From assembly GCA_963661975.1 (NCBI GenBank), contig CAVLDN010000004.1, positions 5,045-69,044 of the forward strand: a DNA stretch of 64,000 nucleotides. The letters are read 5' to 3'. How positions within the stretch are numbered: position 1 is the first letter of the stretch; every line of letters starts with the position of its first letter. Source of the DNA: a bacterium (GTDB lineage: Bacteria > Bacillota > Clostridia > Oscillospirales > CAG-382). The notes beneath the pieces are model-generated. The model searched no databases and had not been told where the DNA came from. It was given only the letters and a program-made list of their open reading frames with translations. The position numbers and the translations under genes are program-made. Below, piece by piece: positions 1 to 61,369 of the stretch.

Positions 1-76
1 CGATGGTTATTGAATCATCATCGAAGATATCGCGGAAAACCGCGGTAAGGCGTTCGAAAATCACTTGCTCTGTCAT
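1..76 (-). CDS. small acyl/peptidyl carrier protein, first 25 codons only (gene runs off the left edge)
   Basis: Minus-strand ATG at 74-76 directly abuts the stop (77-79) of the upstream FkbH-like gene. Translation MTEQVIFERLTAVFRDIFDDDSITI looks like helix 1 of small carrier proteins. The phosphopantetheine Ser would lie outside the window. Confidence 0.5.
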   Translation of the reverse strand, partial: MTEQVIFERLTAVFRDIFDDDSITI

Positions 77-1867
77 TTAATGTTCCTCGCTTTCGACTTT
101 TATAACATCATTTTGATTGCTGTATCCGTCAATTTTAAGCTGCCATACGGTATTGCCATTTTCGTCCTCGGAAATCTTTTCGAAGCCGAAATCACCGTAA
201 AGATTCTTGACCATTCCGTTTTTGGCGGTGGGGTAGTAATACCCGAAAATTTCGCTCACACCTTTTGCCGCACACCTTGCAACAAGCGTGTCGAGCATTG
301 CGTATTCCATCTTCTTTTTCAGAACACGGCAACTCATGAGCCAAAGCTCAATCCTGCAGGCATTGCCGTCTAACGCGCCGATAACAACACTCACGACACC
401 GTTGTCGCCGTAGGCATCCTCCATTTTGCCGTAGAGGGTAATCTTGTTATTATCTGCCGCGGCTTCTTCGATTTCGGGTTGAGTGTAGCGACGGGTAGTG
501 AGGTTGAACTGATTGGATTTGTTGGTGAGCTGCGTTATGCGCGGGATATAAACGGGGGAGAATGATTTTATCTCGGCACGCATGTCAAGACTTTTCAAAT
601 ATTCGTTATAATCGGTGAACTCGTGCTGTTGCGAGGCACGCTTTACATTTGCCTTGTACATATCGTTCCGTTTGAGGTCATCTGCGGAAAAAGCGGTGAC
701 TTCAAAATATCCGTTGCGGTCGATCGTGCGGATATAATCCGCGGGGCGAAGCATTTCGGGAACCGAAACGGCCGGAAGACTTCTTCTGACAAGCTCGCGT
801 TCCGTGGGGTTATCATCGGCAAAAACGAACGAATCAATACCCAAATCCATTTCGGCAGCTGTTTCGGCAAGGTTTCTGTCCTTCGTTTCCCAGTTTGCCT
901 TGATTACGATAAAATCGTCGGGGCGAAGAACGCCTTCCGGGTGATTGAGCCCGGCGATGGCATTTTCGTGATCGTTTTTTGATGCAACAGTCAGCATAAT
1001 GCCGATGCTTTTCTGCTTTTTCAAATATTCCTGAAACGCCTTGTAGCATTCTGCCGTTGCGGTTTCTTCGCCGATATCGATGCCTTCTACACCGTCATCG
1101 CCGACAACACCGCCCCAAAGGGTATTGTCAAGATCAAGAGCTATGACCTTTTTATTCTTCCCGAAAATCGATTTTATTATATGGGAAAGGTTGAAAGCAA
1201 CATAAGGCGTGGCATCTGCGGAAAAGGCATATTTATACATATACCATGCTTCGTCATCATACCATGCATCCAAACCGAAGCAGGCGGAAACATAAGCTAT
1301 ATCGCAAATGTAAAAGCCGCCGTTTTCACGCGCGTATGCGCAGAATTTTTCGTTAAGCCTGTTTATAAAGGATATTGTGCCGTGAATATCCCAGCAATCG
1401 CGATTGCCGAAGAGGCGGTAGGGAGGCAGCTCAAAATTATTCTGAATGACGGGGCAGGCATACTCTTCGCGCAGGCGTATCCACATCTTTTCGTAATATG
1501 AATACATTTCGGCGAGCATCTCATCGACCGCTTCCTGCGTGTCTGAAGCGGAGGGGAGAAACCCCTCGATGTTGCGGTAGCTTGTGTGGATATAGATGAG
1601 ATCAGGTGAAAACTCCTTCAATTCGGGGTTTTCAAACATGGCATCCTGCCAGAAGCGGTTGTATTCCGATTGGTAGAATTCCGGTTCGATCCCCTCGGAG
1701 AGAAGATATACCTCAAGAGTCTTTACTATATCATTTGTTGTGGAGCCGCCCAAAACGGCGATTTTCTTTTTGATTCTTTTGCTCCCGTCTTCAAGAAGCG
1801 CTCTGCGTGTCTTGCGGCGGTTCAGCGTCACCGCGGAAATGTCAAGAGGATAATCTGTTTTAGGCAT
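77..1867 (-). CDS. FkbH-like HAD-superfamily (subfamily IIIC) phosphatase/acyltransferase-type protein, 596 aa
   Basis: ORF 77..1951 trimmed to ATG 1867 (AGGAGA just upstream). This removes a 73-nt overlap with the upstream gene. HAD DxDxT motif in VIALDLDNTLWGGVVGDDG. The C-terminal ~150 aa look acyltransferase (GNAT)-like, which is inference. Confidence 0.75.
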   Translation of the reverse strand: MPKTDYPLDISAVTLNRRKTRRALLEDGSKRIKKKIAVLGGSTTNDIVKTLEVYLLSEGIEPEFYQSEYNRFWQDAMFENPELKEFSPDLIYIHTSYRNIEGFLPSASDTQEAVDEMLAEMYSYYEKMWIRLREEYACPVIQNNFELPPYRLFGNRDCWDIHGTISFINRLNEKFCAYARENGGFYICDIAYVSACFGLDAWYDDEAWYMYKYAFSADATPYVAFNLSHIIKSIFGKNKKVIALDLDNTLWGGVVGDDGVEGIDIGEETATAECYKAFQEYLKKQKSIGIMLTVASKNDHENAIAGLNHPEGVLRPDDFIVIKANWETKDRNLAETAAEMDLGIDSFVFADDNPTERELVRRSLPAVSVPEMLRPADYIRTIDRNGYFEVTAFSADDLKRNDMYKANVKRASQQHEFTDYNEYLKSLDMRAEIKSFSPVYIPRITQLTNKSNQFNLTTRRYTQPEIEEAAADNNKITLYGKMEDAYGDNGVVSVVIGALDGNACRIELWLMSCRVLKKKMEYAMLDTLVARCAAKGVSEIFGYYYPTAKNGMVKNLYGDFGFEKISEDENGNTVWQLKIDGYSNQNDVIKVESEEH

Positions 1868-1878
1868 TTTTTCTCCTT

Positions 1879-3270
1879 TTAATAATTGAGCATATTGTTT
1901 ACCTTGGTCATGAAGTCGCCGGTAACGGCAAATGCAGACATTGATAGGCAAACATCGGTGACACCGTATTCGGTGATAAAGGTCTTCACATTAAGCTTGA
2001 ATTCGCGGCTGTCGACAATATATACATGATCGTACGAGCCGACGAGGAACGGCGCAAGTGCATTGCCGTAGCTGTCCTTGATGAGCAGAAGCGATCTGCC
2101 GGTATTAAGGTCGCTGTAAATGTGCGTTGCATAGGAATCGCCGTAGATAAATTTGGTGTATCCTTTCGCACCGGAGAAGAGCGTTCTGCCTGTGATGGTG
2201 TCAGTGAATTTATCCTTTGAATTATATTCGACCGTGTACGCACGGGAGGGTATGTACCATGTAAAGGTTTCGGGGTTATTCTTCAATTCCGGCGCCTGAG
2301 ACCATGTTGCCAAAGTGCCGAGATAACCGGATTCGCTGTTGGAAGTGAAGGTGGAAAGATCGTCGAAGGGCGTACCTGCAACTCTTGCAAGCTGCTGTGC
2401 GGCATAGTAAGCGCCGAGCGCATTCCAATGGTGATCGGTGCGTGCGTAGATTTCTTCATCAACGTGTCCGGCAAGAGCCGCGATAACATCGACATATTTT
2501 ACATCGATAAGCGAATCGGCAAGCGCTCCGAAGCAGTTTTTGTGATTTTCGATGGAATTCGGATATTTGGAAGGCGCATAGAACGCGCTTGCAAGCGGGG
2601 GACAAAGTACATAGACATTCGCGTTTATACCTGCCTCGGTGAGAGCTGTCTTGAACTGATTGACCTTTGCGCCGGTGTTTGCGCCCGCCTTTGCGGTTCC
2701 GCCGTACTGTTCCATTCCGCGGTTGCCGGAAATAAGTATTCCGCGGTTGGCGATATATGCACCGTCATTTACGGGAGGAACGATCGTGGTCTCCTTCTTT
2801 TTGATCTCAACGGCGGCGTTGAGCGGCTGTGCGGATATGATATCAACTCCCTCGGGGGCTTTGTACTGTATAAGAAATTCGTTTGTACCCGCCTCCGCTG
2901 CTGTACTGACATCTATAACAGCGGAAATGTCGGAGGAGAGAAGGGAATCGATGACATTCTTATCGCCCTTTACTGTAATCTCCGCTTCACCGTTGTATGG
3001 ATCGCAATAAAGTCCGATCTTTTCAAGCGTATCGGAACCGTCGATGAGTATGGCTATTCCGGAGATGGTGCGCGTGTAGGTATTATCCGATTCGGAAGAG
3101 CTGTCGGCGTCGCCGGAGGACGATGTCCCCGATGAAGAGGACTGAGATGCCGCAGACAAGGTGCCCGGCTGTGAAGAATTCTCGGTCGTCGTGTCGCAAG
3201 CAATAAGAAGCACGGCGACAATAAAGGGAATGATCAGTAAATAATACTTCTTTCTTCTGTTTGCTTTCAT
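1879..3270 (-). CDS. DHHW-family (AlgJ/AlgX-like SGNH) extracytoplasmic protein, lipoprotein form
   Basis: Signal peptide with lipobox (VLLIAC). Ser/Asp-rich linker. Motifs RTDHHWNALGAYY and LIKDSYGNAL are shared with the adjacent paralog. Start lies 1 nt after the upstream stop. Confidence 0.75.
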   Translation of the reverse strand: MKANRRKKYYLLIIPFIVAVLLIACDTTTENSSQPGTLSAASQSSSSGTSSSGDADSSSESDNTYTRTISGIAILIDGSDTLEKIGLYCDPYNGEAEITVKGDKNVIDSLLSSDISAVIDVSTAAEAGTNEFLIQYKAPEGVDIISAQPLNAAVEIKKKETTIVPPVNDGAYIANRGILISGNRGMEQYGGTAKAGANTGAKVNQFKTALTEAGINANVYVLCPPLASAFYAPSKYPNSIENHKNCFGALADSLIDVKYVDVIAALAGHVDEEIYARTDHHWNALGAYYAAQQLARVAGTPFDDLSTFTSNSESGYLGTLATWSQAPELKNNPETFTWYIPSRAYTVEYNSKDKFTDTITGRTLFSGAKGYTKFIYGDSYATHIYSDLNTGRSLLLIKDSYGNALAPFLVGSYDHVYIVDSREFKLNVKTFITEYGVTDVCLSMSAFAVTGDFMTKVNNMLNY

Positions 3271-3271
3271 G

Positions 3272-4657
3272 TTATTTGCAAAGCTCCTTGATCTGGTTGA
3301 TTATTGTTTCGCTTACGGCGGAAAAGAGGCTTTCCGCAAAAAGAACATCGGTTACACCGTAATCGTTGATAATGCTGCGAAGCGGCACCGTAAAGGTTCT
3401 GCCGTCGACAACATATATTTCCTCGTATGCTTCAAGAAGATACTGGGGAAGTGCATTTCCGTAACTGTCCTTCACAAGCAGCAGCTTTCTGCCGTTGTGG
3501 CAGGCTTCGGATTTGATAATAACCGAGTTAATGTCGCCGTGGAGGAAGGTCGAATACCATTCGCTCCTGTATTTATCCGGATAGAACCAATAAAGCCCGG
3601 TGTACTGTTCGCCGTTGGAGGTGTCGAAATGATCGATCTCACCGGTGAAATCCTTGTTGCTGTAATACTTGATGCTGTAATTAACGGGCGGAACATAGGT
3701 TTCGAGATCTTCGGGATTGTTGAGCAGGACAGGGTTGTTTCCGGAGAATTTATAAAGCGTTCCGACATAATTCTCGCGGACATACTTGCGGTATTCGCTG
3801 ATATCCGATATCCCGAGCCCTGCCTTTTCGCAGAAAGTCTTTGCGCCGTAATAAGCGCCTAAAGCCGTCCAGTGGTGGTCAGTGCGGAAGTAAATGTGTT
3901 CGTTGGAATGAACGCCGAGCACATTATAGACATTTATATCCGTAACGCGATCGGAAAGATTTTCGCGGATGATGTCCATCGTATCTTTATTGCGGGAGAG
4001 ATAATAATTGTATTTTTCGGTATCCGCCAATGCAAGATAATACGCGCTTGCCTTTGGTACGGGCATGGAATACACCTTGATTGAGGGGTCAAGCGATTCC
4101 GCAAATTCGTTAAGCACCTGCGCAAAACGAACCGCCTGGGCATCGTTCCCGCCGAATAGTTCCATCCCGCGCGAGCCGACGATGAGTATCGAGCCGGAAA
4201 TTTCCGCACCCTGCTTGTCTTCGGAGGTTTCGTTCGGATTGTAGGACACTTCTTCGCTGCTGTCATACGTGCCGGGATTGCTGTTGTGAGAGATATCGAA
4301 ATCCCTGATGCTTTCGGTTTGATCGGGCAATGATGAAGAAGCATCCGCGCTCGATGTGTTTTCGGTCGAACCGTCGACTTTGTGGACGGTTTCATTTTCC
4401 GTCACGCCGTAAAGTGAACGTATGCGGGCTTCATAATCTATAAAGCGATCGCGCCCGTGGACGGTATCGGTGAAATATTGCGACATGCCGCTGAAATATT
4501 CACCGCTGAACAGGCTTTCAAGCGAGAAAACAGGCTTCTCTTTCAGGTTGACATAATCCGAAAGCTTCTCCCGCGGAAAAAATGTGCAGTATACAAACAT
4601 AAACACGAATGTCAGCACTATCAGAGTGAGACAAACAGCCGTAACGGTCTTTTTCAT
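3272..4657 (-). CDS. DHHW-family (AlgJ/AlgX-like SGNH) extracytoplasmic protein, N-terminal TM-anchored form
   Basis: N-terminal hydrophobic anchor (VTAVCLTLIVLTFVFMFVYCTFF). Acidic/Ser-rich linker. Motifs RTDHHWTALGAYY and LVKDSYGNAL. GGAGG RBS in the 17-nt gap after the MBOAT gene. Confidence 0.75.
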   Translation of the reverse strand: MKKTVTAVCLTLIVLTFVFMFVYCTFFPREKLSDYVNLKEKPVFSLESLFSGEYFSGMSQYFTDTVHGRDRFIDYEARIRSLYGVTENETVHKVDGSTENTSSADASSSLPDQTESIRDFDISHNSNPGTYDSSEEVSYNPNETSEDKQGAEISGSILIVGSRGMELFGGNDAQAVRFAQVLNEFAESLDPSIKVYSMPVPKASAYYLALADTEKYNYYLSRNKDTMDIIRENLSDRVTDINVYNVLGVHSNEHIYFRTDHHWTALGAYYGAKTFCEKAGLGISDISEYRKYVRENYVGTLYKFSGNNPVLLNNPEDLETYVPPVNYSIKYYSNKDFTGEIDHFDTSNGEQYTGLYWFYPDKYRSEWYSTFLHGDINSVIIKSEACHNGRKLLLVKDSYGNALPQYLLEAYEEIYVVDGRTFTVPLRSIINDYGVTDVLFAESLFSAVSETIINQIKELCK

Positions 4658-4674
4658 TTTACTCTGCTACCTCC

Positions 4675-6090
4675 TCAGAAGTTCTTGGCATAAAGGAACG
4701 GAACATTCGAGCCGAGTGCCTTTACGATAAGCGTGGTATCTACAAACAGCAATGCCACCGCAACAACCGTTCCGCATATCATGACAGCGGACTGAATGCC
4801 TTCACCCGAGGCGGCAAGGCGCTTTTTGAAGGCGGAGAATATCGGAAAGCTTGCGATTATTGCCAATGCGAGCAGGAACACATAAGGTGTTACCGCGGCT
4901 TTGAATGTATCATCCGTAAAGGCATTTCCGTTTGCACCGACAAGGTTTTTGAAGAAATTGCCCATATCGGACATGGAAGTGAATTTGAAAATGCCGAATC
5001 CGACGATTATAACAAGTTTGTTGTAAATGTGCATGACGGGTGTCGGGATTTTTTTGAGCCGCTTTTTACCGAGCAGCGTTTCGATATATATAAATATGCC
5101 GAAATACAAACCCCAGATTACATAGTTCCAACTTGCGCCGTGCCACAGGCCGGTCGTGAACCATACGAGAAACAGGGAAACGGTGGGCAAACGGTGCCCG
5201 AATATCGGCAGATAAAGCAGGTAATCGCGGAAGAAACTGCCGAGTGACATATGCCATCTTTGCCAAAATTCAGAAATACTGCGGCAAATGAAGGGGTAAT
5301 TGAAGTTTTCATCAAAGTGGAAGCCGAATATACGACCCATGCCGATTGCTATATCTGAATATCCGGAGAAATCATAATATACCTGGAGTGTGTATGCAAT
5401 TACGCCGACCCATGTTGCGGCAACGGAGGCTTCGGAAATGTTTTCGCCGAAGCACTTGTTGACAAGCAGTCCGAGGTTATCGGAAATGATGACTTTTTTC
5501 GAAAGCCCGCATATCACGCGCATAAAACCTTCGTACACATCATTTGCGGAGGATGTACGTTCTGTCAGCTCGCTGCCGATTGTCGTATAACGAACGATAG
5601 GACCTGCGGTGACGGTGGGGAAGAGGGAAATAAAGAGCAGAAGCTTCCCGAAATTACGCTGGAGCTCGACCTTTTCCCAATACACATCGACCATATACGA
5701 TATCATTCTGAAGGTGTAGAAGCTGATGCCGACAAGCATTACGATACCGGTGGGCTTGATGGATGCTCCGAAGATCGAATTGATATTGTCAATCACAAAA
5801 TCGGTGTATTTGAATACCGCAAGCATACCGATATTGAATAATATTGAAATAACAAGTGCAGTTTTCCGCCTGCGTTGACTGTTTGTCGGCGCAAGGAGCA
5901 GCGAAAGACCGTAGTTTACGGCAATTCCCAGTAAATAAATAACGATCCGCTTCGGTTCGCCGTAGGCATAAAACAAAAGCGAAAAGAAGATAAGCACCGC
6001 ATTACGGGCACGTATGCTTTTGAACGCAAAATATGCGATAAAGCAGACTACAAAAAAACCGTAGATAAATAAAAGATCGGCAAAAAGCAT
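4675..6090 (-). CDS. MBOAT-family membrane O-acyltransferase (AlgI/DltB/PatA-like)
   Basis: 471-aa polytopic membrane protein. Carries the MBOAT signature FWQRWHMSLGSFFRDYLLY with the invariant His. N-terminus MLFADLLFIYGFF is typical of the family. Confidence 0.85.
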   Translation of the reverse strand: MLFADLLFIYGFFVVCFIAYFAFKSIRARNAVLIFFSLLFYAYGEPKRIVIYLLGIAVNYGLSLLLAPTNSQRRRKTALVISILFNIGMLAVFKYTDFVIDNINSIFGASIKPTGIVMLVGISFYTFRMISYMVDVYWEKVELQRNFGKLLLFISLFPTVTAGPIVRYTTIGSELTERTSSANDVYEGFMRVICGLSKKVIISDNLGLLVNKCFGENISEASVAATWVGVIAYTLQVYYDFSGYSDIAIGMGRIFGFHFDENFNYPFICRSISEFWQRWHMSLGSFFRDYLLYLPIFGHRLPTVSLFLVWFTTGLWHGASWNYVIWGLYFGIFIYIETLLGKKRLKKIPTPVMHIYNKLVIIVGFGIFKFTSMSDMGNFFKNLVGANGNAFTDDTFKAAVTPYVFLLALAIIASFPIFSAFKKRLAASGEGIQSAVMICGTVVAVALLFVDTTLIVKALGSNVPFLYAKNF

Positions 6091-6121
6091 ATGATTTATT
6101 CTCCGTAATTGTTCTGGGTAG

Positions 6122-6150
6122 ATTATATCACTTCAGTTTACATAAGTCAA
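6122..6150 (-). promoter_or_regulatory. sigA-type promoter of the MBOAT operon
   Basis: Minus strand reads TTGACT-17 nt-TATAAT with TG at the extended -10 position. It lies about 30 nt upstream of the MBOAT ATG. Confidence 0.7.
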
Positions 6151-6183: not shown

Positions 6184-7005
6184 TCAGCTGTCATTTTGCG
6201 AAAGTATGGAATTTACCTCTGCGCCGATGAACATTATATACATACAGACATATAGCCAAAGAAGCAGGATCATAACCGCCGCAAGCGAGCCGTAAAGCTT
6301 GGAATAGTTGCTGAAATTGTCGATAAAGAATGAAAAGAGTATTGAAAACGACACCCACCCCGTGGCTGAAATCATCGCACCGGGCATCTGGTCGGAAAAC
6401 CGCACCTTTTTGCTCGGCAGTGCTTTATAAAGCAAAAGGAAGAATGCAACCAACATCAGAAAGCCTATTATAAAACGCAGGGAAGATACCACATATACCA
6501 ACCCCTTCAGATTCGGAAAGAGGGAATACATATAGTTTGCGATTGTTTTGCCGAATACCATCAGAAACAGTGCGATAAGAAGTATCACTATAAAAACGAG
6601 GGTATAGAAAACCGCGAGTATGCGCAGGAGGAAATAATTACGCGACTCACGCACATCATAGACTGAGTTGAGCCCTCCGATTATCGAAAATATTCCCTTT
6701 GATGCCGACCACAGCAGAACAAATGCCGAAACGATCGTTAACGAAAGCGTGTTCGAGCCTATGATTTCCTTGAAATAATCGGAGAAAAAACCTTTCAGTA
6801 TGCTGGGCGAAATCTCTTTCGCGGTGTTTGTGAGATATTCGGAGGATGAAGTAAAATTCAACCTCGAAATAAGCGAAAGCAGCAGAACGACGAGCGGCAC
6901 AAGAGAGAAAAACATAAAATAAGCCGTCTGAGCGGAATATGCGCCGATCCTGCTAGCCGAAACTTTTCGGGAAAAGTATTTGATTTTTCTGATCAGAGAT
7001 TGCAT
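6184..7005 (-). CDS. YihY/BrkB-family integral membrane protein
   Basis: 273 aa with about 6 TM segments. N-terminal region (GAYSAQTAYFMFFSLVPLVVLL) is typical of YihY-family proteins. Confidence 0.65.
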   Translation of the reverse strand: MQSLIRKIKYFSRKVSASRIGAYSAQTAYFMFFSLVPLVVLLLSLISRLNFTSSSEYLTNTAKEISPSILKGFFSDYFKEIIGSNTLSLTIVSAFVLLWSASKGIFSIIGGLNSVYDVRESRNYFLLRILAVFYTLVFIVILLIALFLMVFGKTIANYMYSLFPNLKGLVYVVSSLRFIIGFLMLVAFFLLLYKALPSKKVRFSDQMPGAMISATGWVSFSILFSFFIDNFSNYSKLYGSLAAVMILLLWLYVCMYIMFIGAEVNSILSQNDS

Positions 7006-7033: not shown

Positions 7034-7062
7034 TTGACTTGCCGAGGTTGAAATGCTATAAT
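7034..7062 (+). promoter_or_regulatory. sigA-type promoter
   Basis: TTGACT-17 nt-TATAAT, located 39 nt upstream of the 7101 ATG. Confidence 0.7.
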
Positions 7063-7100: not shown

Positions 7101-7562
7101 ATGGTCGAAATTAAGAGCAATTATAAAGCGGAAGAGCTTGAAGCACGATGGGATGAAATGACATCACCCGCTCGATTTGCCGGATGTGACGACACATTGG
7201 ATCTTATATTCGTTGCGGACCGTAAAGGCCGTAAGGTCCGGCTCGTTCGCAAGGCTCGTATGGTACATGAACCGTTTTGCTGCGTTTTCCGAGGGAAAAT
7301 GTCCGCAAACGGCAGCGGCAGCAGCATAAAGGGAGTATTTACAAAATCTATTGCCGACTATATAACCGTCCTGCTCATAACCGCTCTGCTGTTTTATGTC
7401 CGCCATGAGGTGATATTGCGCGGAAGTGCTCTTTACACCGTGAATATTTTGCTGGCTGTCTGGATTATCGCCGCGATATTGCTGCTTTACAACACCAAGC
7501 GTGTCAGAAGAAAATATATCGAGTTTTTGGAACGAATTGCCTGCGGCGGGCAAACCGAATAA
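7101..7562 (+). CDS. hypothetical protein: soluble N-terminal ~85 aa plus two TM helices
   Basis: ORF with an AGAGG RBS and a consensus promoter upstream. Two hydrophobic segments (ITVLLITALLFYV, ILLAVWIIAAILLLY). No family recognised. Confidence 0.5.
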   Translation: MVEIKSNYKAEELEARWDEMTSPARFAGCDDTLDLIFVADRKGRKVRLVRKARMVHEPFCCVFRGKMSANGSGSSIKGVFTKSIADYITVLLITALLFYVRHEVILRGSALYTVNILLAVWIIAAILLLYNTKRVRRKYIEFLERIACGGQTE

Positions 7563-12677: not shown

Positions 12678-13325
12678 ATGAGAATGCGCCCGAAGAAAAA
12701 CAGAGATATAAGGATGGAGAGAGTAAGCGGTCTTCTGATGCCGATGAATGCCGAAGGATATATTGATACCATAACGGCTTTTCCGGCGGGGGGCGAACTT
12801 TATCTTGAAATCGGGTGCGGAAAAGGCTCGTTTATAGACGGACTTTCCGAACAATACCCGGAAAAGTGCCTTATCGCAATGGAACTTGTTCCCGATGTGC
12901 TGATGATGGCTATGGAAAGAGTGCAGCGCTCCGGCGGGAAAAATGTGCGTTTTATTCAGGGAAATGCCGATAAAATATCGGAAATCATCCCGGAAGGCTC
13001 CGTTTCGCGGCTTTTTCTTAATTTTTCCGACCCGTGGCCGAAAAAGCGCAACGCAAAGAGACGGCTTACGAGCCCGCTGTTCCTCGAGGAATACAAAAAA
13101 ATACTTGCCCCGGAGGGCAAGATATTTTTCAAGACCGATAACAAGGGCCTGTTTGATTATTCACTCGAAACATTTTTCGCCTGCGGCTATAAAATAACGG
13201 AAGTGAGCTTCGATCTGCATTCCGATCCGGTTTTGTCATCAGGAAATATCGAAACCGAATACGAAAGAAACTTTTCCGCAAAAGGCTTCAAGATAAACTA
13301 TCTTTCTGCGGAGCTGCGCCGATAG
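12678..13325 (+). CDS. trmB: tRNA (guanine46-N7)-methyltransferase
   Basis: Motifs LEIGCGKGSF and FLNFSDPWPKKR(N/H)xKRRL are characteristic of TrmB. Confidence 0.9.
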   Translation: MRMRPKKNRDIRMERVSGLLMPMNAEGYIDTITAFPAGGELYLEIGCGKGSFIDGLSEQYPEKCLIAMELVPDVLMMAMERVQRSGGKNVRFIQGNADKISEIIPEGSVSRLFLNFSDPWPKKRNAKRRLTSPLFLEEYKKILAPEGKIFFKTDNKGLFDYSLETFFACGYKITEVSFDLHSDPVLSSGNIETEYERNFSAKGFKINYLSAELRR

Positions 13326-14769
13326 CTTCGCGCACGACATCGCGTTCGTCAAAGTGGTATTTCACTCCCTCGATCTCCTCATAAAGCTCGTGCCCTTTGC
13401 CGATAAGCAGAACAACATCGCCCTTTCCGGCTTCGGACAGGGCTTTTTTTATTGCCTCCGCACGGTCGGGGACAATGATATATTTGCCGTCCGTGCGCGA
13501 CATTCCGACAAGAATATCCTTTATTATATCATCAATGCTTTCGTATCGCGGATTATCGGAGGTTATTATCGAAAGGTCGGAATTTCTGCCGATAACTTCG
13601 CCCATCGAATATCGGCGAAGCCTGGAACGGTTTCCCCCGCAGCCGAAAACGGAAATGATGCGGTTCGGTTTATAAAGCCTTATCGTTTCGAAAAGCGTTT
13701 TAACGCTGTATTCGTTGTGGGCAAAATCTATAATCACCGTATAATCCATACTGGTGGGGACTATTTCCATCCTGCCTTTTACAAACGCAGAGTGAAGACC
13801 GGTTTGTATTTCTTCATAGGATATCCCGTCCTGCCGTGCGGCGGCTATCGCGGAAACTGCATTGTAAAGCGAAAAATAGCCCGGGGCAGTGATCTCCACT
13901 CGGTGGTCACAGCCGTGTTCGCTGCAGGTGAAGGTCGTCAGAAGCCGGTTGCCATGTATGCCGAATTCCGGTCCGGAAAACGAATAATCGGCGCTCTCAT
14001 CCTTGCCGTATGTGATGATCGGGCATTTGGCGCCGTCGGTTATACGGGTGAAAAATTCGCAGTCCGCGTTGACGATCATGCGGCCGCTCTGCGTGAAAAT
14101 GCGCTTCTTGCAATTGAGGTAATCATCGAAATCGCGGTGTTCCGCTGCGCCTATATGGTCGGGCGAAAGGTTCGTGAAGATGCCCGTGGAAAAACGAATG
14201 CCGTATGTGCGGTGAAGCATAAAGCCCTGCGAGGTTGCTTCGATTATTGCGGTGTCACAGCCGTCCTCGACCATTTCGGCAAAATATTTGTGGAGCAGAT
14301 AGGATTCGGGGGTGGAATTTTCGTTTTCGAAAAATTTGCTGCCGATATATGTGCCGGTTGTTCCGATAACGCCGACTTTTCTTCCGGCGGCCTCATATAT
14401 GCTTTTCAGCATGAAGGAAGTGCTTGTTTTTCCCTTTGTCCCCGTAAGCGCGATTATATTCAGCTTTTCCGCGGGGTTGCCGAAGAAGTTGGCACTTGCG
14501 AGCGCAAGCAGAATTCTGGTATTTTCTACCTTTATAATAATTGCATCTGCGGGCAGGGAAATGTCCTTTTCGGCGGCGAACACCCGCGCACCGCGTGAAT
14601 AGGCGTTTTCGGCAAAGTTGTGACCGTCCGCCTGAAAACCGGTTATGCACACGAAAAGAGAGCCGGGAATAACCTTTCGCGAATCGTATACGACATCTGC
14701 GATCTCAACCGAACTGTCGTAATGCTCTGCGGTGAAATCAATATTCTTCATTATTTGTCCGAGCTTCAT
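13288..14769 (-). CDS. murE: UDP-N-acetylmuramoyl-L-alanyl-D-glutamate--2,6-diaminopimelate ligase
   Basis: Trimmed to ATG 14769 (GGAGGATG RBS). Mur ligase P-loop TGTKGKTST and the DNPR motif in SIITSDNPRYE, consistent with meso-DAP-type MurE. Confidence 0.9.
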   Translation of the reverse strand: MKLGQIMKNIDFTAEHYDSSVEIADVVYDSRKVIPGSLFVCITGFQADGHNFAENAYSRGARVFAAEKDISLPADAIIIKVENTRILLALASANFFGNPAEKLNIIALTGTKGKTSTSFMLKSIYEAAGRKVGVIGTTGTYIGSKFFENENSTPESYLLHKYFAEMVEDGCDTAIIEATSQGFMLHRTYGIRFSTGIFTNLSPDHIGAAEHRDFDDYLNCKKRIFTQSGRMIVNADCEFFTRITDGAKCPIITYGKDESADYSFSGPEFGIHGNRLLTTFTCSEHGCDHRVEITAPGYFSLYNAVSAIAAARQDGISYEEIQTGLHSAFVKGRMEIVPTSMDYTVIIDFAHNEYSVKTLFETIRLYKPNRIISVFGCGGNRSRLRRYSMGEVIGRNSDLSIITSDNPRYESIDDIIKDILVGMSRTDGKYIIVPDRAEAIKKALSEAGKGDVVLLIGKGHELYEEIEGVKYHFDERDVVREAIGAAPQKDSLS

Positions 14770-14927
14770 CGTGCATCCTCCGTTTTTGCAAGAGTAATCA
14801 TCACTGCATATTATATCACAAATGCATCGGTTTTCAATATGCAAAACGAATTTTTTGATTTGCCCGCGCAGGTTTTCGCGCATATGGACGGCTGCGAAAA
14901 AAAAAACAATTTTTTTGCTTTGCATAC

Positions 14928-16437: not shown

Positions 16438-17943
16438 ATGTCAAAAAGGATAAAAGTATTTGATACCACCCTGCGCGACGGCGAACAGATGCCCGGAGTC
16501 AATTTCGGTGTATGCGATAAGCTCAATATCGCGCTCGCGCTGGAAGCTGCGGGTGTAGATATTATAGAAGCGGGCTTTCCCGCCGCATCGGCTGATGAAT
16601 TCACCGCTGTTACGCGCATATCGGAAAATATATCAGCTTCGGTTATTGCCGCACTTGCACGAGCGGATATAAATGATATTGATATTGCCCTTTCCGCGCT
16701 TGCGAAAGCAAAAAAACCTTTGCTGCATATTTTTATCGCCGCAAGCGATATACATTTGCAGCATAAGCTGCACCTTACGCGTTCCGAATTGCTCGAACGC
16801 GTGAGTGAAGTGGTTTCTTACGCTTCGCAGCGTATCGAGAATATTGAATTCTCGGCAGAGGATGCAAGCAGGTCCGATCCCGAATTTCTTCTTTCGGTTT
16901 ATAAAACCGCAGTTGAGTGCGGCGCGAAAATCGTGAACATCCCCGACACTGTCGGTTATGCCACACCCTGCGAATTCGGCAGGCTTGTTAAGTATCTGTG
17001 CGATGGACTTCCCGGTATCCCTGTATCGGTTCATTGTCACAACGATCTCGGCCTTGCCGCGGCAAACACACTTGCGGCGCTGAAAGCAGGTGCGGTTCAG
17101 TTTGACTGTACCGTGAACGGTATCGGCGAGCGCGCCGGCAATGCCGCGCTTGAAGAAATCATCATGGCGTTGAAAACGCGCATTGATGAATTTCAATGCG
17201 AGACAGGTGTTAAGACAGAATGCTTTTCCAAGCTTTCCGCCACGGTGGCTTCGCTTGCGGGCTATTATCTGCCGCCGAACAAGCCCGTTGTCGGCAAGAA
17301 CGCATTTGCGCACGAATCCGGAATACACCAACATGGTGTCCTCAACGACAGGCGTACATACGAGATAATGGATCCCGAATCCGTCGGCATCAAGCAAAGC
17401 AGCATTATACTCGGGAAGCTTTCCGGGAGCCATGCTTTTGAGGAAAAACTCAAAGAACTCGATATTCACTATGGAAGCGAGATCACAAAAGCCGCCTTCA
17501 AGGCTTTTAAGGATCTTGCCTGCCGTAAGGCCGATGTCACGGATGATGATATCCGCGCCCTTGTGGATGAAGCTGCATTCGATGCAAGGATAGTAAACGG
17601 GTATGAGCTCGAATCCTATCAGACTCAAAGCGGTGATCATTGCAAGGCAATGGCACTTATCACGCTTTCACGCGAAGGAAAATCGTTTACCGAAGCCGCT
17701 GCGGGAGAAGGCCCCATAGATGCCTGCTTCAATGCTCTTAACCGCATTGTGGGCAGAGATTTCCGATTAATCAACTACGGTATCAAATCGGTTACCGGCG
17801 GGACGGATGCTCTCGGGGAGGTGCGGGTAAAGATATCCGACTCCGCGGGCGAATATTCCGGCAAAGGTGTGGCCACCGATATCATTAAATCAAGTATAAA
17901 GGCGTATATCAACGCCGTAAACAGAGCTATGTTTATCGACTGA
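16438..17943 (+). CDS. leuA: 2-isopropylmalate synthase family (LeuA; citramalate synthase not excluded)
   Basis: N-terminus IKVFDTTLRDGEQ, HxH metal site VHCHNDLGLA, and a C-terminal LeuA-type regulatory domain. Confidence 0.8.
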   Translation: MSKRIKVFDTTLRDGEQMPGVNFGVCDKLNIALALEAAGVDIIEAGFPAASADEFTAVTRISENISASVIAALARADINDIDIALSALAKAKKPLLHIFIAASDIHLQHKLHLTRSELLERVSEVVSYASQRIENIEFSAEDASRSDPEFLLSVYKTAVECGAKIVNIPDTVGYATPCEFGRLVKYLCDGLPGIPVSVHCHNDLGLAAANTLAALKAGAVQFDCTVNGIGERAGNAALEEIIMALKTRIDEFQCETGVKTECFSKLSATVASLAGYYLPPNKPVVGKNAFAHESGIHQHGVLNDRRTYEIMDPESVGIKQSSIILGKLSGSHAFEEKLKELDIHYGSEITKAAFKAFKDLACRKADVTDDDIRALVDEAAFDARIVNGYELESYQTQSGDHCKAMALITLSREGKSFTEAAAGEGPIDACFNALNRIVGRDFRLINYGIKSVTGGTDALGEVRVKISDSAGEYSGKGVATDIIKSSIKAYINAVNRAMFID

Positions 17944-21247: not shown

Positions 21248-22438
21248 ATGATACTTGATTCTATTAAAGGAATATTCGATTCATCTGCTTTCAGCAATTC
21301 GGAGCTTGTGCCCAGCCTTATAATGATCGCCATTTCCTTTGTTCTTATGGTTCTTGCGATCAAGTTTAAGTTTGAACCGCTTCTTCTTTTGCCGATTGCA
21401 TTCGGTATGTTCCTTACAAACCTTCCCAACGCGGGGATATTCCACATGAATTACTTCATCCAGGAATCCTCTGCGAACATCAATTGGGGCGAGCTTGCCG
21501 CTCACGGCGGTCTGCTTGACTACCTCTACCTCGGCGTTAAGCTCGGTATTTATCCCTGCTTGATATTCATGGGTGTCGGCGCCATGACCGACTTCAAACC
21601 CCTTATTTCCAACCCGAAGAGCCTTCTGCTCGGCGCTGCCGCGCAGTTCGGTGTTTTCGCGGCATTTCTCGGTGCACTTCTGCTCGGCTTTTCTTCCAAG
21701 GAAGCCTGCGCAATAGGTATTATCGGCGGTGCCGACGGCCCGACCGCAATCCTTGTTGCAAAAACGCTTGCGCCGCAGCTTCTCGGTGCGATAGCGATTG
21801 CCGCATATTCGTATATGGCGCTCGTTCCGCTGATCCAGCCTCCGATAATGAAGGCTCTCACTACCAAGAAGGAACGTTCGATCCAGATGCAGCAGCTTCG
21901 CTCCGTATCCAAGATCGAAGAGGTCGTATTCCCGATCCTCTGCACCCTTATTGTTTGCCTTATCCTTCCGGATGCAACTCCGCTTATCGGCAGCCTTATG
22001 CTCGGTAACCTCGCGAGAGTCTCCGGCGTTGTGGACAGAATTTCCAAGACGATGCAGAACGAGCTTTGCAATATCGTAACGATATTCCTCGGCATCTCCG
22101 TCGGCGCAACCGCTACCGCGGATTCCTTCTTCGGCAATTCCAACTTCCTCACCAGCCCGTTCGGCGTGCTCGTCCTCGGACTTTGCGCTTTCGCATTTGC
22201 GACAGCGGGCGGCGTTCTCTTCGGCAAGCTTATGTGCTTTGTCACAAGGGGAAAGATCAATCCGCTTATCGGTTCCGCAGGCGTTTCCGCTGTTCCTATG
22301 GCTGCGCGTGTTTCGCAGGTTGTCGGTCAAAAAGAAAACCCGGGTAACTTCCTTCTCATGCACGCTATGGGCCCCAATGTCGCAGGCGTTATAGGCTCTG
22401 CCGTTGCAGCGGGCGTGTTCTTGACATTGTTCAAATAA
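21248..22438 (+). CDS. oadB: Na+-translocating decarboxylase beta subunit (OadB/GcdB/MmdB family)
   Basis: 396-aa polytopic membrane protein. Family-typical segments: GADGPTAI and [15 protein letters not shown]. Confidence 0.85.
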
Positions 22439-22452
22439 ACGGGAGGTAAAAG

Positions 22453-23865
22453 ATGAAACCGCTTAAAATTACAGAAACGGTGCTCCGCGACTCTCATCAG
22501 TCGCTCATAGCAACCCGTATGACTACCGACGAAATGCTTCCTATATTGAAGGAACTTGACGAAGTCGGTTATTACTCCCTTGAAGCATGGGGCGGCGCAA
22601 CCTTCGATTCCTGCCTCCGCTTCCTTAACGAAGATCCGTGGCACAGACTTCGCGTTATCCGCGAAAATGTCAAAAACACGAAGCTTCAGATGCTTTTCAG
22701 AGGTCAGAATATACTCGGCTATCGCCACTACGCCGATGATGTTGTCGAATATTTTGTACAGAAATGCGTAGCTAACGGTATCGATATCATTCGTATTTTC
22801 GATGCGCTCAACGATCCGCGCAACCTTCAGACCGCTATAAAGGCGACCAAGAAGGAAGGCGGTCATGTCCAGGCTGCTATTTCCTACACTACCGGCCCTG
22901 TTTTCTCCAACGAGTATTTTGCTAATTACGCAAAAGAGCTTGAAGAAATGGGCGCCGACAGTATATGCATTAAGGATATGGCAGGTCTGCTCAAGCCTTA
23001 CGATGCTTTTGACCTCGTCACTGCTATCAAGTCTGTCTGCAAGCTTCCCGTACAGCTTCACACTCACTATACCAGCGGTCTTGCTTCCATGACGGTTCTT
23101 AAGGCTGTCGAAGCAGGTGTTGATATCGTTGATACCGCAATTTCTCCGATGGCTATGGGTACATCTCAGCCCGCTACCGAACCGATCGTCGCAACCCTTC
23201 AGGGCACTCCGTACGATACCGGTCTCGATCTCGGAAAGCTCGATGTTATCGCCAAATACTTCAACACGCTCCGTGAGAAGTACATTGCTTCCGGTCAGCT
23301 TGATCCGAAGGTCCTTAAAGTTAATGTCAATTCGCTTCTTTACCAGGTTCCCGGCGGCATGCTTTCGAACCTTATGTCCCAGCTCAAGCAGGCAAACCAG
23401 AGCGATAAGCTCCAGGCTGTTCTCGAAGAGGTTCCTCGGGTGAGAGAAGATGCCGGCTATCCTCCGCTTGTCACACCGACATCGCAGATCGTCGGTACTC
23501 AGGCTGTTTACAATGTCCTTATGGGCGAACGTTATAAGATGGTCACCAAGGAATTCAAGGGTGTTGTAAGAGGCGATTACGGCAAGACTCCCGTTCCGAT
23601 TAAGCCCGAATTCGTCAAGAAGATAATCGGCGATGAAAAGCAGATCACCTGCCGTCCCGCAGATTTTCTCAAGCCCGAACTTGAAACGCTCCGCGCTCAG
23701 CTCGGCGACAAGGCACATCAGGACGAGGATGTTCTTTCCTACGCGCTCTTTGATAAGGTTGCACTCAAATTCTTCGAAAACCGTGACAAAGCAGAAACGG
23801 TCACCGAAGCTCTTGCAGATGCTTCTCAGATCAAATATCGCGTGAATATCCACGAAGTAAAATAA
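22453..23865 (+). CDS. oadA: oxaloacetate decarboxylase alpha subunit (carboxyltransferase, no fused biotin domain)
   Basis: N-terminus KITETVLRDSHQSL, HMGL-like TIM barrel (QLHTHYTSG), and the PYC/OADA C-terminal domain. The ORF ends before any biotinyl domain. Confidence 0.85.
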   Translation: MKPLKITETVLRDSHQSLIATRMTTDEMLPILKELDEVGYYSLEAWGGATFDSCLRFLNEDPWHRLRVIRENVKNTKLQMLFRGQNILGYRHYADDVVEYFVQKCVANGIDIIRIFDALNDPRNLQTAIKATKKEGGHVQAAISYTTGPVFSNEYFANYAKELEEMGADSICIKDMAGLLKPYDAFDLVTAIKSVCKLPVQLHTHYTSGLASMTVLKAVEAGVDIVDTAISPMAMGTSQPATEPIVATLQGTPYDTGLDLGKLDVIAKYFNTLREKYIASGQLDPKVLKVNVNSLLYQVPGGMLSNLMSQLKQANQSDKLQAVLEEVPRVREDAGYPPLVTPTSQIVGTQAVYNVLMGERYKMVTKEFKGVVRGDYGKTPVPIKPEFVKKIIGDEKQITCRPADFLKPELETLRAQLGDKAHQDEDVLSYALFDKVALKFFENRDKAETVTEALADASQIKYRVNIHEVK

Positions 23866-46234: not shown

Positions 46235-46310
46235 GATCCATTAGCTCAGCCGGTAGAGCACATGACTTTTAATCATGGTGTCCGGAGTTCGATTCTCCGA
46301 TGGATCACCA
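46235..46310 (+). tRNA. tRNA-Lys (anticodon UUU), CCA encoded
   Basis: Folded by hand. Acceptor GATCCAT/ATGGATC, D arm GCTC-AGCCGGTA-GAGC, anticodon arm CATGA-CTTTTAA-TCATG, T arm CGGAG-TTCGATT-CTCCG, then A-CCA. Confidence 0.95.
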
Positions 46311-49064: not shown

Positions 49065-49140
49065 CCGCCCTTAGCTCAGCGGATAGAGCAACGGATTCCG
49101 ATTCCGTAGGCCGGGGGTTCAAATCCCTTAGGGCGGGCCA
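49065..49140 (+). tRNA. tRNA-Arg (anticodon CCG), CCA encoded
   Basis: Folded by hand. Acceptor CCGCCCT/AGGGCGG (C1:G72), D arm GCTC-AGCGGATA-GAGC, anticodon arm ACGGA-TTCCGAT-TCCGT, T arm GGGGG-TTCAAAT-CCCTT, then G-CCA. Confidence 0.9.
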
Positions 49141-61093: not shown

Positions 61094-61369
61094 ATATGGT
61101 CATACTAACCGGGGAGTCAGCGGTGCCTTATACCCGCAATCCGCTATAGCGGGGGCGATATACCCGATAAGGGCTTTGTTTGTGTCGCCGCGCCGTAAGA
61201 GCTTTGTTGAGAAGCGGGTCCTCGCGCAATTCGCACCTGCGAAATATGTCAGGTGAGGAATCAAGCAGCATTAAGCAGATATGCGGATGTGCCGCGAGGG
61301 TGCCTGTTTTGAGAAGGTCTTCCGGTTTACGGACGGAAGCAGATTTCGAATCGGGTTGTATGGCCATAT
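61094..61369 (+). ncRNA. ffs: signal recognition particle RNA, long Bacillus-type with Alu domain (ends +/- ~12 nt)
   Basis: GGGGAGTCAGCGGTGCCTTATACCCGCAATCCGCTATAGCGGGG parallels the B. subtilis scRNA Alu region. Domain IV ATGTCAGGTGAGGAATCAAGCAGCATTAAGC carries a GGAA tetraloop. Terminal helix 61094-61105 pairs with 61358-61369. Position upstream of dnaX matches B. subtilis scr. Confidence 0.85.

Follow-up and report, generated by a model that had tools for sequence, protein, structure and literature searches.

A clostridial operon encoding a candidate carrier-protein-dependent MBOAT-SGNH pathway with an FkbH-like loader

RESULTS

The DNA analysed here, termed the window, is a 64,000-nucleotide (nt) stretch of contig CAVLDN010000004.1 from the Oscillospirales lineage CAG-382 (assembly GCA_963661975.1, positions 5,045 to 69,044 of the forward strand). 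At its left end lies a minus-strand operon of five genes specifying an MBOAT membrane acyltransferase, two extracytoplasmic DHHW proteins (DHHW-1 and DHHW-2), an FkbH-like protein and the start of a carrier protein. The most probable reading, to which we assign a probability of about 0.55, is that the operon specifies an MBOAT-SGNH pathway which depends on a carrier protein and places a small hydroxy-acyl group (glyceroyl being the likeliest) as an ester on an extracytoplasmic wall glycopolymer. The catalytic residues of all components are intact, and the genes recur together in related genomes, in different orders and with different outside partners.

Layout of the operon and identity of the carrier protein

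The operon consists, on the minus strand, of the genes for the MBOAT (4675..6090; 471 aa), DHHW-1 (3272..4657; 461 aa), DHHW-2 (1879..3270; 463 aa) and the FkbH-like loader (77..1867; 596 aa), each an open reading frame (ORF) with a profile match, followed by the first 25 codons of a stand-alone acyl carrier protein (ACP; 1..76), cut by the window edge and recognised from the ORF and its orthologues. Counted from the MBOAT gene, the intergenic gaps are 17, 1, 11 and 0 nt; AGGAG-type ribosome-binding sites stand ahead of the internal genes, and a terminator scan of the window operon returned no significant terminator between them. A sigma-70-type promoter matching at 11 of 12 positions (TTGACT-17-TATAAT with a TG-extended -10; 6122..6150, minus strand) is placed 31 nt 5′ of the MBOAT start codon; within 7.2 kb, a single further site was this good. 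On its own, the promoter carries little weight as evidence, since the scan gave 18 sites in total against 11.9 expected from shuffles. The second 11/12 site, again TTGACT-17-TATAAT with TG (7034-7062, plus strand), faces a 153-aa ORF (7101-7562) whose counterpart in the orthologous contig was assigned to no family. The preliminary description of this DNA, made from its letters alone, had reported five same-strand genes, these junctions and this promoter; all lie where it placed them, and profile searches confirmed the families that it named.

The window carrier fragment (MTEQVIFERLTAVFRDIFDDDSITI) starts directly after the FkbH stop codon. An exact look-up found no record of the window FkbH protein itself, and homologues were used instead. 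In the closest contig (L001), in which the FkbH protein is 90% identical, the same five genes have the same neighbours; a second locus (L005; 76–77% identical) has the same five genes. The carrier gene is the last of the operon in both, specifying proteins of 81 aa (L001) and 78 aa (L005). The L001 carrier is identical to the window fragment at 21 of 25 positions, and both full-length proteins contain the serine motif DWDSLEH (in ...DIEDWDSLEH...) and match generic ACP models; their match to the DltC model is weak (E 0.058). Judged from these orthologous contigs, the truncated fifth gene encodes a carrier protein, and the earlier expectation of a phosphopantetheine serine in the downstream ORF was borne out. 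In L001, the carrier gene is followed by a 15-bp hairpin set between runs of A and T, and then by convergent genes; the unit therefore consists of exactly five genes.

Directly upstream of the operon is a gene for a BrkB/YihY-family membrane protein (6184-7005, minus strand). It was considered as a sixth component and rejected: beyond the window, of the loci examined, only L001, L005, L006 and L089 (a more distant one) show this adjacency.

The FkbH-like loader

The loader scored 269.2 bits against the FkbH model TIGR01686 (cut-off 146.65), with further matches to HAD-IIIC and FkbH_N models, and comprises an FkbH_N domain, a HAD-IIIC phosphatase domain and a C-terminal domain of GNAT fold. The HAD motifs (D245-L-D247-NTLWGG, S296-K297 and D351-D352) are invariant in loader homologues, as is S512-C513-R514 of the GNAT-fold domain. 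In the predicted model (predicted local distance difference test, pLDDT, 78.8), residues 18-395, covering the N-terminal and HAD parts, match the structure 3SLR (1.8e-53; target-normalised TM-score 0.84), while Cys513 is placed at the strand/helix junction of the GNAT fold, where GNATs bind pantetheine. By analogy with OzmB/FkbH biochemistry, we take this conserved cysteine to be the acyl-transfer residue. In polyketide pathways, an FkbH protein and a stand-alone ACP use 1,3-bisphosphoglycerate to produce glyceryl-ACP (PMC7489565), and glycerate is also loaded by FkbH domains in aeruginosin-type assembly lines (PMC10143770). A 708-aa 'long FkbH' (P0096) was discarded as a candidate fusion, its internally duplicated blocks pointing to an assembly artefact.

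The MBOAT

The MBOAT matched PF03062 (3e-18) in profile searches. Against the DltB equivalog model TIGR04091, which covers residues 13-370 of its 471, it scored 152.9 bits (cut-off 375). The NCBIfam DltB score was also tried as a marker of ACP-using MBOATs and abandoned as uninformative, the window protein and two type-B MBOATs all scoring 126–173 bits. Profile alignment to DltB (6BUG) pairs His280 (FWQRWHMSL) with DltB His289, and His317 (GLWHGASW) with DltB His336, the universal catalytic MBOAT histidine. The preliminary description had taken FWQRWHMSL for the invariant-His motif; this assignment is corrected here, His280 being the second conserved histidine and His317 the catalytic one. His280, His317, Phe465 and Tyr467 are invariant among 28 MBOAT homologues.

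The best PDB match of the AlphaFold model (pLDDT 81.9) is DltB itself (6BUG, E 2e-10). The protein extends ∼65 residues beyond DltB, with two extra transmembrane (TM) helices and a fused C-terminal FLYAKNF motif containing Tyr467; the model places the extra helices at 394-413, 417-426 and 430-461. The MBOATs of related loci all have F-[LI]-Y-x-x-F at the C terminus (...I in three of them); the window and L001 proteins have one extra residue in this motif (FLYAKNF). In PatA, the acyl-Tyr intermediate resides on a fused FxYxxF peptide, which passes the group to the SGNH partner, whereas DltB, whose acyl donor is a carrier protein, lacks such a peptide and uses the microprotein DltX (PMC12148441). 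From its sequence, then, the window MBOAT is of the PatA/AlgI type and not of the DltB type, and it would need no DltX because it carries its own fused F-L-Y-x-x-F tyrosine shuttle.

DHHW proteins and other outside partners

In profile searches, DHHW-1 and DHHW-2 matched PF14286 (DHHW; 1.6e-51 and 3.7e-30, respectively) and also ALGX. DHHW-1, a predicted AlgX-type SGNH acyltransferase, has an N-terminal TM helix and the blocks TDHHW, KDSYGN (with the Ser nucleophile) and D-G-R. DHHW-2, its lipoprotein paralogue, has a lipobox (LIAC), a Ser-rich linker, a weak YbbR-like domain (residues 94-145) and the blocks TDHHW, KDSYGN and D-S-R. The catalytic blocks of both align with those of PatB1; DHHW-1 matches PatB1 at 5.8e-9 and the PDB entry 4NZK at 2.6e-60. 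The latter is 58–62% identical to the first DHHW protein of Ruminiclostridium DHHW-DHHW-FkbH-ACP operons, and the Eubacterium siraeum locus of 4NZK itself was absent among the DHHW homologues listed. In the literature searched, DHHW proteins are represented by PatB1, 4NZK and the predicted CcsI alone. A 580-aa protein (P0377), an MBOAT domain with the C-terminal portion of a DHHW domain behind it, may be a real fusion or a frameshift artefact.

The two DHHW proteins that the preliminary description had made part of its scheme are present in the window, yet this layout is a minority one, seen in nine of the 82 loci surveyed (see below) and in three found by other look-ups (L086, L087 and L089); a single DHHW gene is commoner. 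Across loci, three SGNH-type partners accompany the MBOAT: DHHW, GDSL and a TM-anchored family with no Pfam assignment (c5TM355). The third, which has an invariant Asp, Gly-x-Ser and His and weak Pfam matches to GDSL_2, DltD and ALGX, found no match in a PDB profile search; its sequence features make it probably an undescribed SGNH-like acyl-transfer partner. Its members are ∼350 aa long and are encoded 3′ of the MBOAT gene in FkbH-ACP-MBOAT loci, in up to six tandem paralogues (L067:12027-19989, L076:12067-17116, L056:13528-14595 and 15 other loci).

Gene neighbourhood in related genomes

An FkbH alignment scan with one genome per species returned at least 582 relatives, of which the best 80 (53–75% identity) were used. 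They come from Oscillospiraceae, Ruminococcus (including R. flavefaciens 007c), Lachnospiraceae (including Eisenbergiella tayi DSM 26961), Christensenellaceae, Erysipelotrichaceae, metagenome-assembled genomes of the class Bacilli and one Synergistales genome, the majority of loci being from Clostridia. In the resulting set of 82 non-redundant loci, all ORFs were scanned with hidden Markov models built from clustered ORFs. An ACP gene lies 3′ of FkbH in 78/82 loci (median gap 9 nt), and a same-strand MBOAT gene within 8.5 kb in 63/82. For loci with at least 5 kb of sequence on both sides, the latter figure was 42/55 (76%), against an estimated chance expectation of ∼2%, assuming a few MBOAT genes per 3-Mb genome.

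The window-type order, MBOAT-DHHW(1-2)-FkbH-ACP, was found in 27 loci and the opposite one (order B), FkbH-ACP-...-MBOAT-partner, in 26. In seven Lachnospiraceae loci the genes are dispersed in a glycosyltransferase cluster (GT2, GT-C-like PMT_2/DUF6056 and YdjC) together with a GDSL-type SGNH gene. That the set recurs in two opposite gene orders and with three unrelated SGNH-type partners speaks for its being a functional unit. Searches from the other side give the same picture: MBOAT homologues (52–53% identity) are accompanied by DHHW, FkbH and ACP genes, and DHHW homologues belong to DHHW-DHHW-FkbH(-ACP) operons. The refuting outcome named earlier, a lack of conservation of the FkbH-like and carrier genes next to those for MBOAT and DHHW, was thus not seen: across families, in shuffled orders and in both directions, they lie beside the genes for the MBOAT and its SGNH partner.

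Sister loci may contain further enzymes. In 16/26 order-B loci, a MaoC dehydratase gene (usually with a short-chain dehydrogenase/reductase, SDR, gene) or one of the glyoxalase/epimerase fold (VOC) lies between the ACP and MBOAT genes. Near ACP/MBOAT, and typically between them, MaoC genes were found in 13 loci, eight with SDR (e.g. L063:5562-8504, L080 and L041, MaoC+SDR), and VOC genes in 14 (e.g. L043, L060 and L078); the two kinds never occur together in one locus. No tailoring gene was found in the window operon or in any of the 27 window-type loci.

FkbH-ACP pairs also exist without a nearby MBOAT gene, which makes them a portable module for acyl supply that may feed other acceptors; the MBOAT/SGNH conduit is their commonest, not their sole, partner. 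In the Ruminiclostridium (E. siraeum) clade, a DHHW-DHHW-FkbH(-ACP) operon with no MBOAT gene lies between mfd/pth and glnA-type genes (loci of this clade are L045:7091-12005, L032, L074, L086, L087 and L088:6712-8115). Elsewhere, FkbH-ACP pairs without an MBOAT stand beside cytidylyltransferase, nucleotidyltransferase and polysaccharide-deacetylase genes (L049:7987-14046, L079:5250-8342 and L073:4991-10035), an arrangement which suggests an acyl-ACP supply serving cytoplasmic sugar acylation.

Proposed mechanism and alternative readings

Judging by its family membership, the loader would take 1,3-bisphosphoglycerate in the cytoplasm and form an acyl-S-Cys513 intermediate on its GNAT-fold domain; the HAD domain would strip the 3-phosphate, and the adjacent ACP would receive the glyceryl group on its phosphopantetheine arm. 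On the model of both DltC-DltB-DltX and PatA, glyceryl-S-ACP would then dock at the cytoplasmic face of the PatA-type MBOAT; in a transfer catalysed by His317, the group would pass the membrane tunnel and reach Tyr467 in the fused FLYAKNF shuttle. The acyl-Tyr peptide would hand the group to the Ser nucleophile of a DHHW protein and thence to sugar hydroxyls of the wall polymer, the TM-anchored and lipoprotein paralogues probably serving two acceptors or sites. The acceptor would be a wall or surface glycopolymer, to which those sister loci that are rich in glycosyltransferases point. Since window-type loci have no tailoring gene, the loaded group would leave unchanged, as glyceroyl.

Several observations weigh against this proposal. 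The donor known to date for PatA-type MBOATs with a fused Tyr motif is acetyl-CoA (PMC12148441), and the carrier resembles generic ACPs, not DltC. A representative search with the MBOAT gave 32,462 matches at E ≤ 0.001, and no MBOAT-ACP or MBOAT-FkbH fusion was present in the 10 longest of the top 150, one of which joins MBOAT to DHHW sequence. No nearby MBOAT gene was found in 13/55 complete loci, three of which are from Ruminiclostridium, the others being cytidine monophosphate (CMP)-sugar/nucleotidyltransferase clusters or having housekeeping surroundings; in Ruminiclostridium an MBOAT orthologue (56% identical) stands alone elsewhere. In addition, the survey counts cover one large clade, that of the 80 closest relatives, and not all FkbH proteins. 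Much of this would be expected if the operon joined two neighbouring but independent modules, i.e. an acetyl-CoA-dependent MBOAT/DHHW O-acetyltransferase of the PatA1/PatB1 kind and an FkbH/ACP pair acting in a separate cytoplasmic step (e.g. the synthesis of a glycerate-containing glycan or lipid precursor): the acetyl-CoA preference of PatA-type MBOATs, the FkbH-ACP pairs without MBOAT, the solitary MBOAT orthologue of one clade and the lack of a protein joining ACP to MBOAT all fit it. Independence does not, however, readily explain why 76% of complete loci have an MBOAT gene near FkbH-ACP even with the order inverted and the SGNH family swapped, why the operon genes overlap or nearly abut, or why the Ruminiclostridium DHHW genes stay in the FkbH-ACP operon although the MBOAT gene is elsewhere. 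Moreover, the MBOAT is the only consumer of acyl-ACP encoded in the five-gene operon, which specifies no other acyltransferase able to use it. Independent modules are thus considered unlikely.

A second reading, to which we give a similarly low likelihood, retains the ACP-MBOAT-DHHW conduit and changes its cargo, the exported group being lactoyl, 3-phosphoglyceroyl, acetyl or another small acid. The identification of glyceroyl comes from the family membership of the loader, whose clade has an FkbH_N domain without an assigned role and may use a different acyl-phosphate or keep the phosphate; the tailoring genes of sister loci, too, indicate that the chemistry varies within the family. Nevertheless, the HAD motifs and Cys513 are invariant, as the 1,3-bisphosphoglycerate route expects, and the lack of tailoring genes in the window operon and the 27 loci of the same order would mean that the group is exported as loaded. 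Finally, a decaying, non-functional remnant or a chance adjacency is very improbable given that every ORF is intact, the catalytic residues are invariant and the cluster is conserved at 53–94% identity across hundreds of species-level genomes.

The MaoC/SDR or glyoxalase-type genes of sister loci suggest on-carrier tailoring of a C3 hydroxy acid before export. In the bryostatin loading module, an FkbH-dehydratase-ketoreductase combination has reportedly been proposed to turn glyceryl into lactyl. A broader generalisation, whose odds we place slightly below even, is that these loci form a widespread undescribed class in gut Clostridia and their relatives, in which FkbH diverts 1,3-bisphosphoglycerate to glyceryl-ACP, optional MaoC/SDR or glyoxalase-type enzymes tailor the group on the carrier (e.g. 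to lactoyl or an epimer), and an ACP-fed PatA-type MBOAT with interchangeable SGNH partners produces neutral hydroxy-acyl wall esters, the uncharged counterpart of D-alanylation.

Other features of the window

Elsewhere the window contains a Mur ligase family gene (13288-14925), a 2-isopropylmalate synthase-like (HMGL/LeuA) gene (16438-17943) and adjoining genes for the beta and carboxyltransferase (alpha-type) subunits of a Na+-translocating oxaloacetate decarboxylase (21248-23865, plus strand). Its RNA genes include tRNA-Lys(UUU) (46235-46310), tRNA-Arg(CCG) (49065-49140) and a large bacterial signal recognition particle RNA (61100-61363, plus strand; 172.9 bits).

DISCUSSION

In bacterial envelopes, MBOAT-SGNH systems such as Dlt, Pat and Alg govern charge, S-layer anchoring, resistance to lysozyme and antimicrobial peptides, and recognition by the immune system. 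The preliminary description had seen in the operon a Dlt-like logic built from other parts. The loader, carrier, MBOAT and outside partner of that scheme are all retained here; the MBOAT architecture, in contrast, is that of PatA, with no need of DltX. A PatA-type MBOAT set in a Dlt-like carrier logic makes the system a Pat/Dlt hybrid. A full-text literature search, which did not cover most subscription journals, so that an earlier description is possible, found no account of this gene set, in agreement with the earlier remark that no experimentally characterised system of such composition was known.

With Dlt (DltA, DltC, DltB, DltX and DltD; teichoic-acid D-alanylation) the operon shares a loader, a carrier with a predicted phosphopantetheinyl serine, an MBOAT that retains DltB His289 and His336 (its His280 and His317), a Tyr shuttle and an outside SGNH enzyme. 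It differs in that the loader is of the FkbH/HAD-IIIC type, no DltA-type AMP-binding gene being present in either the operon or the orthologous loci; the carrier, judged from L001 and L005, resembles generic ACPs rather than DltC; the MBOAT bears its own Tyr motif and the window operon has no gene for a DltX microprotein; the outside enzymes belong to PF14286 DHHW/ALGX and not to DltD (PF04914); and the predicted acyl group is an uncharged hydroxy acid as opposed to D-Ala.

The fused FxYxxF MBOAT and the DHHW/AlgX-type SGNH partner with DHHW, Ser and DxR blocks are, in turn, features of PatA1/PatB1 (Bacillus cereus secondary cell wall polysaccharide), PatA/PatB (Gram-negative peptidoglycan), AlgI/AlgJ/AlgX and the clostridial CcsH/CcsI. 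These systems use acetyl-CoA without a carrier or loader, whereas the window operon has a co-conserved ACP and FkbH protein, as well as two DHHW paralogues. According to a mechanistic paper from 2025, MBOAT/SGNH pathways other than Dlt have no carrier protein (PMC12148441). The present proposal, if true, would break the division made in the literature between Dlt, with its carrier-protein donor, and all other systems, with an acyl-CoA donor and no carrier.

The loader and carrier have their counterparts in FkbH/FkbJ-type loading (FK520, tetromadurin Mad7/Mad8, polyketide, tetronate and aeruginosin pathways), with which they share the FkbH domain, HAD motifs, Cys and adjacent ACP. The window operon, however, encodes no polyketide synthase, nonribosomal peptide synthetase or FabH-like consumer; the predicted consumer is the MBOAT, the predicted product a cell-envelope ester, and the hosts are gut Clostridia instead of actinomycetes or cyanobacteria. 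Two structural-genomics entries without an assigned function belong to the same families, namely 4NZK (EUBSIR_00411, the DHHW protein of E. siraeum) and 3SLR (BF1531, the N-terminal and phosphatase part of a Bacteroides fragilis FkbH protein). If the proposal is right, abundant Clostridia of the gut and rumen would bear a new ester substituent on their walls, and wall decoration would be tied to glycolytic flux. Cultured carriers of the system exist in R. flavefaciens 007c and E. tayi DSM 26961, and 4NZK already provides the crystal structure of a likely component.

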